The position numbers and the translations under genes were made by a program. The notes below the pieces were generated by a model. It had not been told where the DNA came from. It did not search any database and was given only the letters and a program-made list of their open reading frames with translations. A stretch of DNA of 17,881 nt from Thermoproteota archaeon. GTDB lineage: Archaea > Asgardarchaeota > Jordiarchaeia > Jordiarchaeales > Freyrarchaeaceae. Of the stretch, positions 6,042 through 17,039 are shown one piece after another (the first letter of the stretch is position 1; every line of letters starts with the position of its first letter). Location of the stretch: positions 1 to 17,881 of the forward strand of contig JAPDJY010000010.1 in NCBI GenBank assembly GCA_029258835.1, in the 5' to 3' direction.

Positions 6042-6139
6042 GCACCCGAGCGCTCTCGGCTTCCTTAAACGCCTAATGGAAGTCACTTTAAACGTTGAAG
6101 GTAGAGATTTTAGGTAATGGTATCCATTTCTTACCCAGA

Positions 6140-6517
6140 ATGACTACCAAATACGTCACAGTGAAACTACCCAAAGACTTGGCCGACCTCATCGACGAGA
6201 TGCTGGAGAGTAAGTACGCGAAGATGCTCGGTTACACATCGCGTGTGGACATCATACGCGAGGGAATCAAGAGACTACACGACGAGTTCACACATCGAGC
6301 CCTAGTGCACCTGAATACCTTCGAGGATCACTTGGAGATCCTAGACTTCACGGGCGGTCTTCACCGCATAGCGCGGGTGTTCCTGAAAAAGACGGATAAG
6401 GGTGTCAGACTATATTGCGACGTATGCGAAGCATTCCGTTGTCTTCACGTCGAGTTCGCCCGCTCCTTAGAGGATGTGAGGAAACTGAAAGTGACATTCT
6501 TCGAGGAAGAAGGTTAG
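6140..6517 (+). CDS. RHH (CopG/Arc/MetJ) regulator with C-terminal CxxC..CxH zinc-binding domain
   Basis: YVTVKLPKDLADLIDEML...GYTSRVDIIREGI; LYCDVCEAFRCLHVEF. ATG 6140 is preferred over TTG 6095. Confidence 0.8.
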   Translation: MTTKYVTVKLPKDLADLIDEMLESKYAKMLGYTSRVDIIREGIKRLHDEFTHRALVHLNTFEDHLEILDFTGGLHRIARVFLKKTDKGVRLYCDVCEAFRCLHVEFARSLEDVRKLKVTFFEEEG

Positions 6518-6539: not shown

Positions 6540-6547
6540 TTAAATAA
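6540..6547 (+). promoter_or_regulatory. TATA box for a leaderless Zn-ribbon/RAMP/array transcript
   Basis: TTAAATAA lies 25-32 nt upstream of ATG 6572. Confidence 0.55.
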
Positions 6548-6571: not shown

Positions 6572-6700
6572 ATGGTCAAGGTCAAGTGCCACAAGTGCGG
6601 GTACGAGTGGGATTACAAAGGAAGATTGGCAACAGCGACATGCCCTAATTGCAAGTCATCTGTGAGGGTGAGAAAATGGAAGTCTACAGGGTCAAGATAA
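6572..6700 (+). CDS. 42-aa zinc-ribbon microprotein (absent from the ORF track)
   Basis: MVKVKCHKCGYEWDYKGRLATATCPNCKSSVRVRKWKSTGSR; CxxC...CxxC; overlaps the RAMP gene start. Confidence 0.8.
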   Translation: MVKVKCHKCGYEWDYKGRLATATCPNCKSSVRVRKWKSTGSR

Positions 6701-7215
6701 GGGGGACTAGGCCACTCCTCATGCACGCGCCTACCGAGATCGGGGACAAACCCACCCGGCGGAGGGGCGAGCACCTCCCGCCGGAGAAGGAGGCGGAAAT
6801 GTACCTGTACAAGGACGAAGAAGGGCGCATCGTCATCCCAGCGGTCAACATCAAGGCTTGTATACGCGACGCTGGACGGAACTACAAGGTTCGCGGGCGG
6901 AGGACGACCTTCGCGGCTATGATAAGGGCGGGGATAGATATCAGGCCATATCCTTACGTTCCCTTGAAGCACAAAGGCTGGGCCGTAGACTCTAGGCCCG
7001 TCGTCGTGCAGAGACAGCGGATCATCCGCAACCGCCCGCGCTTCGACGAGTGGGAGCTAGAGTTCACGATAGTGAACAAGGATCCGACGGTGATCCACGC
7101 GGACACGCTCAAAAGGATCCTCGAGGATGCAGGCAAGTGGTACGGTCTCGGCGACTTCAGGCCGGAGTTCGGCTTGTTCGAGGTCGTCGAGTTCAAAATA
7201 AAGCAGGAGATCTAA
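6676..7215 (+). CDS. Stand-alone Cas7/RAMP-superfamily-like protein
   Basis: 179 aa from ATG 6676 (GAGGGTGA RBS). RAMP hallmarks in order: YRVKIRGTRPLLMH (beta1), IVIPAVNIKACIRDA (P..S.KG..R-equivalent helix), RPRFDEWELEFTI, and the C-terminal Gly-rich loop GKWYGLGDFRPEFGLFEV. Confidence 0.8.
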   Translation: MEVYRVKIRGTRPLLMHAPTEIGDKPTRRRGEHLPPEKEAEMYLYKDEEGRIVIPAVNIKACIRDAGRNYKVRGRRTTFAAMIRAGIDIRPYPYVPLKHKGWAVDSRPVVVQRQRIIRNRPRFDEWELEFTIVNKDPTVIHADTLKRILEDAGKWYGLGDFRPEFGLFEVVEFKIKQEI

Positions 7216-7223
7216 TACTTTCC

Positions 7224-7323
7224 TGCGTGGCAAGGCTTGGCTGGCTTGGGCGAGGTTTGGCTGGGCGAGGCGCGACACAGCAAGGCTGGGCGAGGTCAGG
7301 CGTGGCAAGGCTTGGCATGGCGA
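7224..7323 (+). repeat. 5-nt-periodic GGY-NN array, candidate non-coding guide RNA for the adjacent RAMP protein
   Basis: 19 in-phase pentamers from 7229 to 7323; 16 begin GGC/GGT (exceptions GCT 7244, GAC 7274, AGC 7279). Preceded by TGC-GT and bracketed by TACTTTC at 7216-7222 and 7326-7332. Confidence 0.85.
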
Positions 7324-7333
7324 GTTACTTTCG

Positions 7334-7438
7334 TTGACAGAAAATGACATACCAGAAGAAACCTACAACTGCGAGCACGTGAGGTTTATCCTCGAGGAGA
7401 AGCCGGAAATAGTGAACGAGATCAAGCGCAGGTTTTGA
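7334..7438 (+). pseudogene. Possible remnant of the C-terminus of an RHH-Zn regulator
   Basis: Frame reads ...YNCEHVRFILEEKPEIVNEIKRRF*, similar to CLHVEFARSLEDVRKL of 6140-6517; only a TTG start is available. Confidence 0.3.
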
Positions 7439-7523
7439 CCAAAATTCACACCCCCTTTTGACTACGTAAAACGGTCATAAGGGTGGGTATTTAGCACATT
7501 CGCATAAGGGGGCCCTTTTGACC
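7433..7523. repeat. Cluster of direct/inverted repeats next to the integrase 3' end (candidate att or recombinase-binding site)
   Basis: CCCTTTTGAC at 7453-7462 and 7513-7522; near-inverse GTCATAAGGG at 7474-7483; CATAAGGG again at 7503-7510; TTTTGACC at 7433-7440. Confidence 0.5.
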
Positions 7524-7528
7524 ACACT

Positions 7529-8800
7529 TTAGAAAGTCCTTCTGACGACGACCTTTCCGCTGTTCAGAGTCGCGACGAAGTCCCACCCATCGGCTAGGTA
7601 AGCAGGGAGATCCTCCTCGCTTATGACTCTCGTTTCTACACTCGCCATGAACCTGCGGAACTTCTCGACGGCCTCGTCGACGCTCTTCGCCCTAGCGAGC
7701 GCCTCCTCGAGCCTCCTGATCTTGTCCTCGCTGAAGCCGAGCAGACGTGCAGTGTCGAGCAATTGCCGCTTCCTCATCTCCTCGGCGCTGAGGTCCTCGA
7801 GTATCGTCAGGAACGGTATCGCTTTCTTATACTCCTCGCGGACCTGCCACTCGGGCGGCCTGAAGTACGACGGGTCGAGCGCGTCGCCGCGATGGCCCAT
7901 CATGAACTCGCGGAAACTCCTCCTCACGCCAGCGACCTCGAGCTGCGTGCGGAAGAACTTGCGGAAGCAGTGTATGTGGATGTCGTAGCGTGGATCCTTA
8001 AGACCCGACAGCCGCCTCAAAGACATGTGCCTCTTCAGCTCGCGCCTGAGGACCTCCTCGAACGTGCGGCCCGTGTACGGCTGGCCGTACTTCGTGACGA
8101 ACAGGTAGCTCTCGGGGAAGAGCTTCTCGCCGCGCTTCTCCCTCTCCGCTAGGTAGAGTTTGAGGAACTTCGCGGCCTCCGGCGTCATAAACGTGTAGTA
8201 CGAGGATCTGGACTTATTGAGGGCCGCCGGAACCGTGATCTTCGGCGGATCCGAGTTAAAGTCGACGTGCTTGAGCTTCAGGCGCGAGAGGGCGCCGACA
8301 CGCAGGCCGGCCGAGCACATCAGCAGGACCGCGGCCTTCTCCTTGAGGCCGAGCGCAGCCAGGAAGTCGCGCAGCTCCTCGCGCGTCGGGATCCTGTCCG
8401 AGTCCTCCCTCGACTCACGCGGGAACTCGAGAAGCGCCGACGGGACCTCGACGCCGTTCTTCCTGAGGAAGGTCTTGACGTAGGGGACGCGGCTGTTCTT
8501 GATCGTCGACGGGGAGACGCCGCGCTCGAAGAATAAGTGGTCGATGTACTCGTTGAGCAGCGCCGCGACGTCGACCTCGCCAGCCTTCGCCTTCGCGACC
8601 AGCTCGCCGGGCCCCATGCCAGCGAATCTGAGGAAGTCCCTCACCGCGTAGAGCGAGACGCGCAGCGACTCGACGCTCCTCGAGCGCTTCCAGACGTACG
8701 CGGCGTACTTGGCGACCTCGGGGCTGTCGAGCATGGGCAAGAGGGCGCGCCCCCTGCCGGCCGCTAGAACCCTCTTCGCGGCTTGGGCTGCGGCTTCCAT
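7529..8800 (-). CDS. int: Tyrosine recombinase/integrase
   Basis: Catalytic set R (AGLRVGAL), K (LNKSR), HxxR (HCFRKFF), H (MMGH), Y (DPSYFRP). SAM-like N-terminal domain and a C-terminal extension ending YLADGWDFVATL.SGKVVVR. Gene is intact. Confidence 0.95.
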   Translation of the reverse strand: MEAAAQAAKRVLAAGRGRALLPMLDSPEVAKYAAYVWKRSRSVESLRVSLYAVRDFLRFAGMGPGELVAKAKAGEVDVAALLNEYIDHLFFERGVSPSTIKNSRVPYVKTFLRKNGVEVPSALLEFPRESREDSDRIPTREELRDFLAALGLKEKAAVLLMCSAGLRVGALSRLKLKHVDFNSDPPKITVPAALNKSRSSYYTFMTPEAAKFLKLYLAEREKRGEKLFPESYLFVTKYGQPYTGRTFEEVLRRELKRHMSLRRLSGLKDPRYDIHIHCFRKFFRTQLEVAGVRRSFREFMMGHRGDALDPSYFRPPEWQVREEYKKAIPFLTILEDLSAEEMRKRQLLDTARLLGFSEDKIRRLEEALARAKSVDEAVEKFRRFMASVETRVISEEDLPAYLADGWDFVATLNSGKVVVRRTF

Positions 8801-11585: not shown

Positions 11586-14500
11586 TTATCTCCTCGAGCC
11601 ACGCCTCCCACCCCTGCGTTTGGCGTCAAACTCGTGGAGGGCCTCGACGAAGGACTTGTCGACAGTCACGTTGACCACGACCGGCGGACCTGCGGGCTGC
11701 TTCGGTTTCGGCCGAGCACGGAAGATCTTCATCCCGGTGTAGACGACGATGACGGCGATTACGAAGGCCCCGATGCCGGGCAAGAAGGCCCAGCGGCCAA
11801 TCATATTCGCGATCTCTTGGAGCTGCGCGAAAAAGGCTGCCTCGGTGACCTCGTTGTAGATGTCGAAGTAAAAGCTGGCCTCGCTCTCGAAGCCTTTCGT
11901 GTCGGCCGCCCTGACGATCAGCCTAGCCAGCCCGTTCGGGTACTTCAGCGTGTCGACGGTAATGTCCCAAGGCTCGCTCAAGTTCTTCCACTCGGTCTCA
12001 AAGTCCCACCGCCAGATCGCCCAAGCCACTCCAGCGGGGTCGGATATCGCCAAGTCGATCGTGACGGTCCCGTTGAGCGTGGACCCTTGCGGCGGGCTGT
12101 TCAGCAGGATCGTCGGACCCTGGTTGAAGACCGTGAAGCTGTCGCTGCCGGAGGCGTAAACCCTCTCGAACGCAACGACCTCGGCTGTGACGTCGACGAC
12201 CGTCTCGGCGCCCTGCGGGGCGTCGGGAGCCGTGACGTTCGTCAGGATCGTGGCGTTGTCCAAGACGTGCCAGCTAGCGACGAGCGTCCCGCCCACGTAG
12301 AGGTTTATGTCGGCCTCGAGCGTAGGGACGCAGGTGTAGTTGATTTCGACCGCAACGACATCGCCGGTCTCGAACACGCCGCTCTCGCAAGTTACGATCA
12401 CGCTGACGTTCGTGGTCTCAGGCAGGACTAACTTAAAGAGCGCGTGGCCCGGCGTCGATATCAGCATGTTGTTTATTATGGCGACGTAGGCGTACACCGG
12501 CTCGCTCGCGTTGGCCTCTGTCAGCGTCTCATAAGTCGTGATACTGGTCAGCGATGGGTCTAGGTGCTGCATTTTGATAACGCCGTAGCCGACCGGCGTT
12601 ACCGGTGTGAGGATTTGCCACTCGGCCACGTCCGTCCCGTTGGCCGCTTTAATGTATAGGTAGATCGGCATGTCCGGGGACTCCGGGATCGAAAACGTGA
12701 ACAGGTAGACTAGGTAGTTATTGGGCGCGACCGTTTGGATTATCTCGGCCGTGTCTATTATCCCGTAGTATTCCGCGAAGAGCGTAGCGTTGACGACTAT
12801 CTGCTTTTCGATGGTATCGTAGTTCGTAATCAGCACCGAGATATTGACCGAAAGGCCAGATTGCGTAATGTTGACTGCGGTGATCTCGACGACGCCGACC
12901 TTGACTGCAGGCGAGTATTTGTAGAAAGTGCTAGCCGAGGGCTGCATAAAGTAGAGCGCCCAGTCGTGTTCTCCGACGACGCCCGAGCGCGCGGTAGCGT
13001 TAATCTCCATATCGACGCGCTCTAGCGTCCCGTAGTATTCGATCGTTATGTCTATCGCGTTGATGTAGAGCGTCTTAGACCAATTGTAAACCGCGCCGTC
13101 GATGTCGGTGAAGTTGACTAGGATCACGACGTTTACGTCCGGCATCGTAAAGCTGTAAGACAAAACGGGCGAGCCGGTCGCGTTAAGTTGGTCGTTCAAG
13201 TAGAGATAGAGCGCCTGGCTTACGCGCTCACCGGTGTCGTATGTCACGTCTACGCTGATCGAGACGGAGGTGCCAGACGGGTAGTAGTATTGTTCGGGGT
13301 CGATCGTGACAGCCCAGTTGACCGAGCCGCCAACGAATATCTCCTTTAGCCACGAGTCGCTCTTGACGGCGCCGCCCTTATCGAACGCCAGCGACAGCGA
13401 AATGTTGTGGTGGCCGCTCAGCGTGATGTTGAGCGTCAACGTAGCGGTGCCTCCCGAGTAAGTTGTTCCGTTGGCGACAATGGAATCAACTGGAGTACCG
13501 TTGTAGGTTATCCACGCCTCGACGGTAACGTTGAAAGCTACGTTCTTCTGAGCTATGTCTGGACAGTCTACGCTGTAAGCTATGTCGGTCGCTATTAGAT
13601 CCGAACTGATGATCTCGCCAGCGTAAGTGAAACTGGCGTCGGTCGAATTCGCCTTAATGTAAAACAGCGAATCGGCGGACGGGACTGTGATCGTTATTTG
13701 CGCGACGCCGCTAGCGTCAGTGAAGGCGCTGCCGACTACCGTATCGTTGACCCAGAAAGTGACTTCTTGGCCGGAAATAGGGTCGCCGTGGGGGTCGGCT
13801 AAGGTGACGTTAACGGTAACGGACTCCGACAGCAAGAACACCGAGCGCGGTATGCCGATCGACTGGATCGCATTAAACCAAAAGACTGTCGCGGTGTAGT
13901 TGTAAACCGCGCCGTCGATGTCGGTGAGGTTCGCTAGCACGCTAACGTCGCGGTCTGGCATCGTAAAACTGTGAGTCAAGATGGGGGCACCGCTGGCGAC
14001 CAGAGAGTCATCTAAGTAGAGGTAGACGGTTTGAGCGACCCTCTCGCCGGTGTCGTAGGTGACATCGATGCTAATATCGCAGGTCTGGCCCGTGTACCGG
14101 TACCGGTCGGGATCAAACGTGACATTCCAGTTGACGGAGCCCCCCACGAATACCGTTTTGAGCCAGCTGTCTGACTTCGCAGCGCCGCCCTTGTCGAAAC
14201 TTAACTCTAGCGTCACGTTGTGGTGGCCGCTCAGCGTGATGTTGACCGATATCGTGACCGAGCCGCCCGCGCTGGTCGAGCCGTTAACAGTAATCGTGTC
14301 GACCGGTGACGAATCGTAAGTTATCCACGCCTCAACTGTGATGTCGAAAGCGACATTTTTCTGAGCGATGTCGGGGCAAGTGACTGAGTAGTTTATGTCG
14401 GTCGATATCAGCGCCGACGTGTTCCTCAGACCTGCGTAAAGACCCGACGTGTTAGCACAGACGTAAAACAAGCTGTCGTAGGCTGGCGCAGATACGCTCA

Positions 14501-17039
14501 CGGTGGCGTAGCCTTGTGCGTCGCTCGTCGCCGTCGCCACGAGCGTCTCGTTTATCCAGAAGTCGACTTCCTGGCCAGCGATAGGATCGCCATAAGGGTC
14601 TTTCAGAACTGCGGTGACATTGAAAGTTTCGGAGAGCAGGAAGTATACGCGGTCATACTCAGTCGAAACGTCTACGACCGCGTTGAACGCCTGAGCGAAA
14701 ACAGTGTAGTTGGCACCAGACTCTAGGGCATCGCTCAAGATCACGAGCGAGAAGTGAGTTGCGTTGTAATCCTGCTCGACATAGTCAGTGCCAGCGGTCA
14801 GCAGCACAGGGTCGCCAGTTCCACTTGCAGACTCGGCATAAGCGTATTCGATCGTCGCGGTCGGTTCAGGGTCGGCGTACTTGCGGACGTAAACGTAATC
14901 AACGTAAACGTCGCCGACGTAGTTCGCCCCCCACGTCGCAAACCATATTTCAGCCGGGTCGACGGGAATATTCGTCGTGTGCGTAACCGCGAGCGCGCCA
15001 TCGCGGTAGAGACTTGCCTTGGTACTCGTCCACCACATCTCATCGCGGTGGTAATTCGCTGTGTCGGCATCGACCTGAATCGTCGTGATAGTATACGTCG
15101 TCGAGGTGTCCTTCGTTATGAACTCCCAGTCCGTGTTAGAGTCGTGGTAGTCCGCGACCTCTTGGTTCGCAGCACCCTCCGGGGGCCACAGAGCAAAACC
15201 GACGCATGCGCCCGCGAGCCTCACGCGGGCGCCGACGATGACAGGCGGAGAAAATGTTATCGTCGTGTTCACGCTGCTCCCGTCGGGGACGTATAGCACG
15301 CCGCCTGACTCGCTCACATCCCCATCCGGTTCCCACTTGGAGGTATCTATCGCGCCATCGTCGAAATCGTCGAAGAAGTCGAAGACAGCAGCAGGATCCC
15401 AGTAGGGATTGACGTTCGTGGCATTACCGTAGAATAAGAACAACGTAGTGTTGGCGACATCGTAGTACGTGCCTGCTGCAATCTCTGGTATCCTGACCCA
15501 GCAGTAGCACCAAGACCCATCGACTTGCGTCTCGTTCCACGCGGGTATGCGCTCATATCGCTGCGATGTAGCGTTCCAAATAGCAAATCTGATGTCCGAG
15601 AAGTCGCTGACCATGTTAGCTTGGTAGGTTACGTTAAACCACCTCTGATAGTCAGTCAGCGCGCCGCCAGCGGTATTGTTGATTACGATGGGGATCTTGT
15701 GGGTGAACTCTTCGTAAGTGCCCGTCTCAGGGTCGTAGACTTTGTAAGTTGGCGGGTATTGCGCTGTGACGTTTATGAGATCGTAGCCTTTTGGCAGTAG
15801 GATGTTTAACTCGGGGAAAATGCCGCCAGCTGGGATTTCGTAGTTGAGCACGTCGAAGCGGTAAGTGGCGTTGTCGTCGGAGTAAGCCCAGTAATACCCC
15901 TCGATAAGGTACCATTCTTCGTCTTCCAGCCAGCCGATCACGGCGAAGTTGGTTTCGAGGACTGTGCTAGTCTTCCACGTCGCGCCGTTGTCATAAGATT
16001 CGACGCCGTAGCCATCTGCGTAAGACAGTGCCGAATCGTAAGCTAAGAGCCAGCCGTTACCGGCTCCTACGTCTGTGCCTGCTGGCGCAGCAATGCTCAT
16101 TATGATCGCGTAGTCGCCAGCCTCCAGCTCAGTCGCGCTGGGCAGGTCTAAGCGCACCCACGTCAGCGCGGTGCCTACGGTCCCGTTGTCGATGACCCAG
16201 TAAGCTATCGTCTCGCTGGGGTAGCCCCCTGACGTGCGCGTTAAGTTGACCTCTAAGCCGTAACTGGTCGTGGCTTGCTCAGCTATGTGAACTTCTATCG
16301 CCGAGATCGCAACGCGCTCTGAGATCGTGAAGACCTCGCCATACCAATACTCTCCGACCCTGCTCTCCAGCGTGTTGTCGCTGACATCGAAGCGCGTTAC
16401 ATTGGTCTCAGGCAGCGTGCTGTTGAAATACGCAGTGAAGCCTTGGGTCTCGGCGTAGCCTTCTGTCGATGTCACAGTAGGGTCGATGTCAAAGTTACCT
16501 TCGACGGTCCAGCGGACCAGCCACTTCCCTTTAGCCTTAGCACACGATGGAAGCTTACCGTGCTTAACGGCGTCATCCCACGCGAATACGAACCTAGCGA
16601 CTTCGACCCTGTGAAGCTTCTGCTTAAACTCCTTGCCTTTGGCGTCGATGCGCCACTCGAAAGTCGTGCGCTTCGGCGCGTAGCCTTCGACGGACCACTT
16701 GACCGCTGGCATCACGCTGCTGAAAGACCAGACGAACCTAGCCCAGCCCTGGTCGCGCTTACCTTTGACTAGCTCGACTTCCCAGATCACCTTGTTGCCA
16801 ACGCGCTCTAGGCGCACCGTGCTGTTCAGCTTTGCGCCTTTCAGCCTGAAATCCAGGTTGACCGATACGCCGGTCGCAGGGTCGAAGATGCTGATGTCAC
16901 CGGTCGGAAAGAACTTGAAGACGAAGCCGGTCAGGGGGTGCTGAACTTCGATCGATCTCACTGTCCGGGCCTCGAGGAGCGGGGCGGCCAGCACCACTAC
17001 CAGTACCGTAATCATCAGGAGCGTGGAGGCCCGCCTCAC
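11586..17039 (-). CDS. Giant surface glycoprotein/adhesin (spike): signal peptide, DUF2341, lectin-like and Ig-like repeats, C-terminal TM anchor
   Basis: 1817 aa. DUF2341 motif (IPIVINN...DFSDIRF...WVRIP...LFYGN...VFDFFDDF, ~15350-15700); tandem ~270-aa duplication; Ig-like PTILLNSP...SDPAGV; TM plus basic tail; many N-x-S/T sequons. Confidence 0.9.
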   Translation of the reverse strand: MRRASTLLMITVLVVVLAAPLLEARTVRSIEVQHPLTGFVFKFFPTGDISIFDPATGVSVNLDFRLKGAKLNSTVRLERVGNKVIWEVELVKGKRDQGWARFVWSFSSVMPAVKWSVEGYAPKRTTFEWRIDAKGKEFKQKLHRVEVARFVFAWDDAVKHGKLPSCAKAKGKWLVRWTVEGNFDIDPTVTSTEGYAETQGFTAYFNSTLPETNVTRFDVSDNTLESRVGEYWYGEVFTISERVAISAIEVHIAEQATTSYGLEVNLTRTSGGYPSETIAYWVIDNGTVGTALTWVRLDLPSATELEAGDYAIIMSIAAPAGTDVGAGNGWLLAYDSALSYADGYGVESYDNGATWKTSTVLETNFAVIGWLEDEEWYLIEGYYWAYSDDNATYRFDVLNYEIPAGGIFPELNILLPKGYDLINVTAQYPPTYKVYDPETGTYEEFTHKIPIVINNTAGGALTDYQRWFNVTYQANMVSDFSDIRFAIWNATSQRYERIPAWNETQVDGSWCYCWVRIPEIAAGTYYDVANTTLFLFYGNATNVNPYWDPAAVFDFFDDFDDGAIDTSKWEPDGDVSESGGVLYVPDGSSVNTTITFSPPVIVGARVRLAGACVGFALWPPEGAANQEVADYHDSNTDWEFITKDTSTTYTITTIQVDADTANYHRDEMWWTSTKASLYRDGALAVTHTTNIPVDPAEIWFATWGANYVGDVYVDYVYVRKYADPEPTATIEYAYAESASGTGDPVLLTAGTDYVEQDYNATHFSLVILSDALESGANYTVFAQAFNAVVDVSTEYDRVYFLLSETFNVTAVLKDPYGDPIAGQEVDFWINETLVATATSDAQGYATVSVSAPAYDSLFYVCANTSGLYAGLRNTSALISTDINYSVTCPDIAQKNVAFDITVEAWITYDSSPVDTITVNGSTSAGGSVTISVNITLSGHHNVTLELSFDKGGAAKSDSWLKTVFVGGSVNWNVTFDPDRYRYTGQTCDISIDVTYDTGERVAQTVYLYLDDSLVASGAPILTHSFTMPDRDVSVLANLTDIDGAVYNYTATVFWFNAIQSIGIPRSVFLLSESVTVNVTLADPHGDPISGQEVTFWVNDTVVGSAFTDASGVAQITITVPSADSLFYIKANSTDASFTYAGEIISSDLIATDIAYSVDCPDIAQKNVAFNVTVEAWITYNGTPVDSIVANGTTYSGGTATLTLNITLSGHHNISLSLAFDKGGAVKSDSWLKEIFVGGSVNWAVTIDPEQYYYPSGTSVSISVDVTYDTGERVSQALYLYLNDQLNATGSPVLSYSFTMPDVNVVILVNFTDIDGAVYNWSKTLYINAIDITIEYYGTLERVDMEINATARSGVVGEHDWALYFMQPSASTFYKYSPAVKVGVVEITAVNITQSGLSVNISVLITNYDTIEKQIVVNATLFAEYYGIIDTAEIIQTVAPNNYLVYLFTFSIPESPDMPIYLYIKAANGTDVAEWQILTPVTPVGYGVIKMQHLDPSLTSITTYETLTEANASEPVYAYVAIINNMLISTPGHALFKLVLPETTNVSVIVTCESGVFETGDVVAVEINYTCVPTLEADINLYVGGTLVASWHVLDNATILTNVTAPDAPQGAETVVDVTAEVVAFERVYASGSDSFTVFNQGPTILLNSPPQGSTLNGTVTIDLAISDPAGVAWAIWRWDFETEWKNLSEPWDITVDTLKYPNGLARLIVRAADTKGFESEASFYFDIYNEVTEAAFFAQLQEIANMIGRWAFLPGIGAFVIAVIVVYTGMKIFRARPKPKQPAGPPVVVNVTVDKSFVEALHEFDAKRRGGRRGSRR
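13060..14690 (-). repeat. Intragenic tandem duplication (~810-nt unit x2)
   Basis: Protein repeats FLLSE...CPDIAQKNVAF...ITLSGHHN...TDIDGAVYN. Identical DNA blocks at 13084-13111/13900-13927 (28 bp) and 13404-13432/14217-14245 (29 bp). Confidence 0.9.

Follow-up and report, generated by a model that had tools for sequence, protein, structure and literature searches.

VIPR systems, which are related to CRISPR and silence DNA under the guidance of RNA, were first described in bioRxiv preprints of 2026, for the Escherichia phage SUSP1 and for a Pseudomonas fulva prophage. They combine Vipr proteins with vrRNAs of 9-16 YNNGG repeats, in which internal degeneracy is frequent, read double-stranded DNA by a 1-nt-skip (xNN) rule and silence transcription; seven types with vap accessory genes are known from bacteriophages and archaeal viruses (10.64898/2026.04.26.720920). 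One protomer binds each GGY-NN unit, the NN acts as a gapped guide, and the genes silenced are those of rival elements (10.64898/2026.04.26.720920, 10.64898/2026.04.26.720927). Structures of Vipr have been solved, and in that of SUSP1 the residues that contact GGY are H17, R138, D177, W178 and R179 (10.64898/2026.04.26.720927). Guides directed against other VIPR systems have been reported, and no self-targeting was found at ≥80% NN match in the systems of that study (10.64898/2026.04.26.720920). A preprint of October 2026 adds guides that target a recombinase active site, where a footprint of six units (18 bp) is treated as a functional target, and both decoy guides and orphan vrRNAs (10.64898/2026.10.15.759431).

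We analyzed a stretch of 17,881 bp (hereafter the window), which is an entire contig of a 2.72-Mb metagenome-assembled genome (MAG). Positions 6572-7325 very likely hold a VIPR locus that is carried by an archaeal mobile element with an integrase and that consists of an operon and an array; the array would give one or two vrRNAs, on which Vipr would polymerise to silence DNA. As VIPR has already been described, the locus is a confirmation and not a discovery. The features discussed below are listed in Table 1.

Table 1. Positions of the VIPR locus, its putative control elements and neighbouring genes in the window
Feature	Position	Strand	Description
RHH (CopG-like, N-terminal) protein	6095-6517	+	140 aa; upstream of the putative zinc-ribbon/vipr operon
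TATA-like box	6540-6547	+	~32 nt 5' of the zinc-ribbon start codon (ATG); recognised in the sequence itself
Zinc-ribbon ORF	6572-6700	+	42 aa, CxxCGYxW...CPxC; shares 25 nt with the start of vipr
vipr	6676-7215	+	179-aa single-RRM RAMP protein, GLGDFRPEFG glycine loop
TATA-like A/T box	7192-7203	+	Inside the vipr 3' end, ~32 nt before the first GGY
Putative vrRNA gene(s)	7226-7325	+	20 YNNGG units; units 4, 10 and 11 degenerate
Own-flank match of units 12-19	7367-7389	+	Agreement at 15/16 read bases; 44 nt beyond the array
Tyrosine recombinase (integrase)	7529-8800	-	Pfam Phage_integrase E 9e-14; phrog_1 E 6e-25
1817-aa protein	11586-17039	-	DUF2341 + Big_1/MG4-type Ig-like domains

The Vipr protein and the genes beside it

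The vipr ORF is free of internal stops and ends with a TAA at 7213-7215. As a single sequence its product matches PDB 36pp_D, the "SUSP1 Vipr protein", over residues 2-170 (E = 3.8e-12), and a profile built from 130 family sequences matches the same entry over its full length (E = 1.7e-30). The name VIPR, which the initial annotation of this DNA had proposed, is that of a real system (10.64898/2026.04.26.720920, 10.64898/2026.04.26.720927) to which the window protein belongs by homology. Among the PHROGs the protein falls in phrog_4652, a group of unknown function (E = 1.9e-25), and it has no match in Pfam or among the PADLOC Cas models. The family is large, with 264 close relatives at ~64-81% identity and, at E ≤ 1e-3, 2940 representative clusters. 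Its named members that are closest to the window protein, at 54-70% identity, lie on short contigs in Aenigmatarchaeota, Thermofilum and Thermoprotei MAGs, and two of them come from Guaymas Basin. A scan of IMG/VR with the Vipr protein found no relatives, and nothing near-identical to the DNA of the window was found in a phage collection.

The contact residues of the window protein were read off its alignment to 36pp_D. H17, R138, D177 and R179 of SUSP1 Vipr correspond to H17, R120, D160 and R162, and W178 is replaced by another aromatic residue, F161. R120 is invariant in the 130 sequences and R162 is conserved in at least 90% of them. The clamps on the non-target DNA strand, K82 and K88 in SUSP1, are R68 and R75 in the window protein.

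Because folding from the single sequence gave a poor model (pLDDT 47), we used an alignment-based AF2 model of all 179 residues (pLDDT 95.8). All of its best structural matches are Cas7-group RAMPs (Cmr4, Csm3, type VII Cas7, Cas7-11 and Csf2; Z 9.5-11.7). Csm3, Cmr4 and type VII Cas7 score Z 10.6-11.7, with the best matches, to Csm3 and Cmr4, at 11.4-11.7 over residues 1-179, and Foldseek pairs the model with Csm3 at E = 1e-6 and a probability of 1.00. The model is a minimal RAMP fold that consists of one RRM core, a thumb and the G-loop GLGDFRPEFG at residues 157-166, with no second RRM. A 179-aa RAMP protein with a Gly-rich loop had been proposed from the letters of the sequence, and both the ORF with its loop and the comparison of structures (Z ~11.5 for Csm3/Cmr4) bear this out.

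The same annotation had called the gene solitary. This is wrong, since the zinc-ribbon gene that overlaps the vipr start is coupled to it and conserved. Among 11 aligned loci, ten others have it directly 5' of vipr, and the aligned proteins have eight invariant columns, including all four Cys. The Pfam zinc-ribbon matches of the window ORF fall below the cut-off. Other relatives have a ~45-60-aa gene of the RHH/DUF7557 type in the zinc-ribbon position, again overlapping the vipr start. On the basis of this conserved position we regard the zinc-ribbon gene as a candidate accessory (vap-like) gene, and the presence of a small upstream gene fits the pattern of a "predicted DNA-binding vap" in the non-nuclease VIPR types. 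The zinc-ribbon gene and vipr would form one operon, with the TATA-like box at 6540-6547 as its putative archaeal promoter. The RHH protein encoded upstream, which matches phrog_38461 (E = 4.6e-7) and, just below the cut-off, Pfam RHH_1 (E = 7e-4), is a possible regulator, although its place in a VIPR system is uncertain.

No CRISPR-like repeat-spacer array was found in the 17.9-kb contig, and none of the 24 window ORFs scanned, which include part of the small ORFs, matched a Cas family of Pfam or PADLOC. This agrees with the earlier statement that the window has neither cas1/2/3/5/6/10 nor a repeat-spacer CRISPR.

The GGY array and its counterparts in homologous loci

The array downstream of vipr consists of 20 five-base units whose phase is unbroken throughout, with GGY triplets from 7229 to 7319. 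In the best 100-nt frame, GGY occupies 16 of the 20 in-phase triplets; non-GGY triplets are GCT at 7244, GAC at 7274 and AGC at 7279. When the whole window was shuffled 100 times with its dinucleotides preserved, the best 20-unit frame had at most seven GGY, and 2000 local shuffles also gave no more than seven in phase. No second GGY array was found on either strand of the window. A GGY-NN array of ~100 nt, as initially annotated, is thus well above the null, but its distance from the vipr stop had been put at 9 nt and is 10 nt in YNNGG framing (10-13 nt depending on the framing).

The array is either one guide of 20 units or two guides (units 1-9/10 and units 12-20). The degenerate units 10-11, together with the sharp edge of a match to the array's own flank (described below), suggest that units 12-20 may be a guide of their own. 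The array folds no better than its shuffles (z = -1.08). A search of the array against Rfam found no family, Rfam and tRNA scans returned nothing relevant, and neither a conserved 3' tail nor a pseudoknot of the SUSP1-clade type was found at the window array or at the arrays of the archaeal clade to which it belongs. The invariant structured 3' tail that follows the repeats in the SUSP1 clade may be a feature of clades and not of the family. In the clade arrays the A/T content peaks at -35 to -26 relative to the array start, and a TATA-like hexamer is present ~31-36 nt upstream in most of the 41 distinct arrays, that of the window included. This peak and the recurrence of the hexamer point to arrays with archaeal promoters of their own, and the A/T box at 7192-7203 is probably such a separate promoter.

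We gathered 72 homologue loci (54 from metagenomes, 16 from genomes and two via protein look-up), to which ten longer loci around Vipr relatives were added later. When an array was taken to be at least six in-phase GGY units beside vipr, one was present in 44 of the 56 loci from metagenomes and in 14 of the 16 from genomes (58 of 72 overall), and several of the array-less loci have almost no flank. The adjacent arrays with five-base period, fixed GGY and variable NN that the initial annotation had proposed to look for in homologues are thus recurrent. Across 1266 units each NN position has an entropy of 1.94 bits, and the GGY columns are fixed partly by the detection rule. The clade arrays lie upstream or downstream of vipr and on either strand, have 7 to 65 units, are apparently single transcription units and mostly terminate in T-rich tracts.

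Two observations were made along the way in these loci. In L010, L011 and L021, long arrays are split into sub-arrays by a conserved, AAGCRT-like spacer of ~6-7 nt that shifts the phase, and these spacers may be processing sites between vrRNAs. L082, a related contig of 87 kb, carries two TnpB/Cas12f-like (OrfB_IS605) genes at 1270-2658 and 13605-14822, less than 10 kb from its VIPR locus.

By homology with the solved SUSP1 complex, the array just 3' of vipr would be transcribed and processed into one or two vrRNAs on which Vipr protomers polymerise, one for each five-base unit, with the GGY buried and the NN displayed. Some 20 dinucleotides would then pair with double-stranded DNA, every third target base being skipped, and the bound complex would block transcription, as is expected because no nuclease gene lies nearby. 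One subunit per 5-nt unit and dinucleotides that together make a discontinuous guide had been suggested for this locus beforehand, and these features would correspond to what the VIPR preprints report. Most likely, the system serves to silence genes of competing mobile elements that share its host.

It is very improbable that the locus is instead decayed or orphaned, with an intact protein and an array that no longer yields a working guide. Such decay could account for the degenerate units at 7244, 7274 and 7279, for the lack of a recognisable tail or strong terminator, for a T-rich end and a TATA-like box that are weak compared with those of relatives, and for the failure to find an external target. 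However, the phase is kept over all 20 units, the vipr ORF is intact with all key residues present, internal degeneracy is frequent in working vrRNAs (10.64898/2026.04.26.720920), and relatives with clear targets have degenerate units as well.

Gapped matches in the clade and beside the window array

We decoded 90 distinct guides of the clade and compared each of their 10-unit stretches with related loci that total 362 kb. With a skip of one base, 38 of these stretches scored at least 18/20, compared with five at skip 0, one at skip 2 and four in an NN-swapped null; skip 3 detects the arrays themselves only. Extended skip-1 matches on L035 reach 39/44 for the guide of L030, 33/36 for that of L033 and 20/20 for that of L048, and the region matched at up to 39/44 (L035:1721-1785) lies in the gene just downstream of the L035 vipr. 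The guide of L023 matches the integrase of L043 and L044 across its HPHMLRH catalytic motif (28/30; L043:2177-2220), and the guide of L019 matches L043 at 38/46. Where the matched strand has a called ORF at the site, as on L035 and in the L043/L044 integrase, the skipped bases are third codon positions. Judged from these alignments, reading by the published 1-nt skip reveals real matches from one related archaeal element to another. The guides that fall on the integrase HPHMLRH motif resemble the recombinase targeting published for SUSP1 satellites.

For the guide of the window itself, no external target was found in the window, the MAG, the 362 kb of related loci or the IMG/VR seeds. Its best score was 25/40 in the window and 58 loci, which is chance level, and 27/40 in the whole MAG (null 25-27), and three loci with related integrases also gave chance-level scores. 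Seed searches of IMG/VR gave five matches for units 1-9 (best extension 28/40), none for units 12-20 and 31 for units 12-19 (best 26/40), the best scores again being at chance level. Units 12-20 can also be read as a K-W-E-Q-V-N-F-I-like peptide reminiscent of integrase box I, and one of the 31 IMG/VR matches had such a motif. This idea was dropped because the integrase of the element itself has 28 relatives here, none of which contains the motif.

The best match of the window guide anywhere on the contig lies in its own flank, where units 12-19 match 7367-7389. A score of 15 was reached anywhere on the contig by 7 of 2000 shuffles of the unit order, and other skips score lower at this site (13 at skip 0, 12 at skip 2 and 12 at skip 3). 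The match is in frame with a 34-aa, TTG-started ORF (7334-7438) for which no homologues were found in the fetched loci or the MAG, and the skipped bases are at wobble positions. In the same register the array as a whole matches 19 of 40 read bases, and the match stops sharply outside units 12-19. In L003, which is the nearest relative by synteny, a 15/16 match covers the start codon of the gene that immediately follows the array, and six further loci have 14/16 matches within 250 nt. Among 82 guides, seven have a flank match at p ≤ 0.01, where 0.8 would be expected, and ~90% have none. In loci longer than 5 kb, five of the six best own-locus matches (at least 14/16) lie less than 200 nt from the array.

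One reading of this match, which we hold to be somewhat unlikely, is that it is a by-product of rivalry, in that the guide targets a rival's allele of the region beside the rival's VIPR locus and the element's own copy has diverged just enough to escape. The cross-element targets in the clade do adjoin the rival's vipr or fall in the integrase (L035:1721-1785; L043:2177-2220 and 598-665), guides against other VIPR systems have been published (10.64898/2026.04.26.720920), and the sharp end of the own-copy match is consistent with such divergence. However, no such allele was found in the 362 kb of related loci, in the three integrase-related loci or among the IMG/VR seeds, and none of the fetched loci contains a homologue of the small ORF.

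A second reading, tentative and in our judgement unlikely, is that units 12-20 are aimed at the element's own DNA 3' of the array, so that VIPR is in part a cis-acting regulator. It could, for instance, set up a roadblock that separates the VIPR operon from the convergent integrase gene, or repress the small ORF next to the array. The wobble placement of the skipped bases and the rarity of equal scores among the shuffles argue for it, as do the match on the downstream start codon in L003, the excess of flank matches among the clade guides and their closeness to the arrays, and a footprint of 18 bp and six units is treated as functional elsewhere (10.64898/2026.10.15.759431). Against it, just 8 of the 20 units match, the matched ORF is without detectable homologues, most guides of the clade have no flank match, and the systems of 10.64898/2026.04.26.720920 show no self-targeting at ≥80% NN match. 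For the clade as a whole, we consider it quite unlikely that some vrRNA segments are aimed at the element's own DNA beside the array and that VIPR, besides being a weapon against rivals, is also an RNA-programmed regulator in cis of the element's genes, such as those around the integrase.

Silencing of rival elements remains our preferred role for the locus. The recurrent near-array self-match may be the sole part of these results that goes beyond the VIPR literature; if the own-flank match is functional, it would be a self-regulatory use of VIPR, and we found no account of such a use in the three preprints.

The element, its host and comparison with known systems

The integrase gene is convergent with the VIPR operon, and a Candidatus Baldrarchaeia MAG contains the closest homologue that has a name (58% identity). 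Because of this gene we read the contig as an integrative mobile element. It also encodes an AAA-type ATPase and a protein with DUF234, and many of its small ORFs are of the zinc-finger type. The 1817-aa protein, which looks like a surface or adhesion protein, contains an internal duplication of 70% identity (13084-13559 versus 13900-14372). No recognisable capsid or envelope gene was found on the contig, so that the enveloped archaeal virus of the initial annotation is unsupported; what the contig does carry is the integrase, the ATPase and the surface-type protein.

Between the array and the integrase stop (7440-7528), CCCTTTTGAC occurs twice, near 7452 and 7514, each time beside a G/C-rich run. 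The two copies may be terminators, or else sites that bind the integrase or are related to att. Two paralogous small proteins, encoded towards opposite contig ends (1121-1528 and 17041-17418, both on the minus strand), have a W-rich motif in common (FWDWLWEN / WEWFWEN) and a weak likeness to PHROGs of tape-measure proteins or endolysins (E 5e-8 to 8e-3).

The GC content of the contig is 58.0% versus 48.8% for the MAG, whose contamination estimate is 6%, and this gap may reflect a foreign element or a binning error. No terminal repeats were found, nor shared DNA or a spacer-like match between the contig and the remaining MAG, and none of 60 related genomes had a Vipr gene. An Asgard host for the element is possible, the link to the host being uncertain.

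The actinophage members of phrog_4652, which include gp34 of Mycobacterium phage LittleE and gp41 of Gordonia phage Trine, belong to the same family as the window protein, both by the PHROG profile and by tblastn (~30-32% identity), and are annotated only as hypothetical. With the Cas7-group RAMPs (Csm3, Cmr4, type VII Cas7 and Csf2), Vipr has in common the single-RRM fold, the glycine-rich loop and the thumb and, as judged from the Vipr structures, probably also the binding of one protomer per fixed footprint. Unlike in these proteins, there are no CRISPR repeats, spacers or other cas genes, and identity is only 9-18%. The footprint of Vipr is 5 nt with three buried bases, whereas that of the Cas7 group is 6 nt with one flipped base. 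The array, cas5, cas6, large subunit and adaptation genes by which a Class 1 CRISPR-Cas effector is recognised were not found in the contig, and only the Cas7-like fold is common to both.

Compared with published VIPR systems, the locus differs in its archaeal context with TATA boxes of the archaeal type, in the 42-aa zinc-ribbon accessory gene (an RHH protein in relatives), in the match of part of the guide to the element's own flank, and in that neither a conserved 3' tail nor a pseudoknot could be detected; the arrays of the clade also differ in their range of 7 to 65 units and in lying on either strand. In other respects it is like them. The protein is homologous and keeps the GGY-contact residues, the adjacent YNNGG array has variable NN and internal degenerate units, and the locus is minimal and nuclease-free, with a small accessory gene predicted to bind nucleic acid, on a mobile element. 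The clade's matches in rival elements, including those on the recombinase catalytic motif, likewise follow the 1-nt skip and align with the wobble positions. The locus is a clean archaeal example of VIPR on an integrative element that was binned with an Asgard-type MAG, and, from public sequences alone, the published gapped code is seen to hold in a hydrothermal archaeal clade as well.
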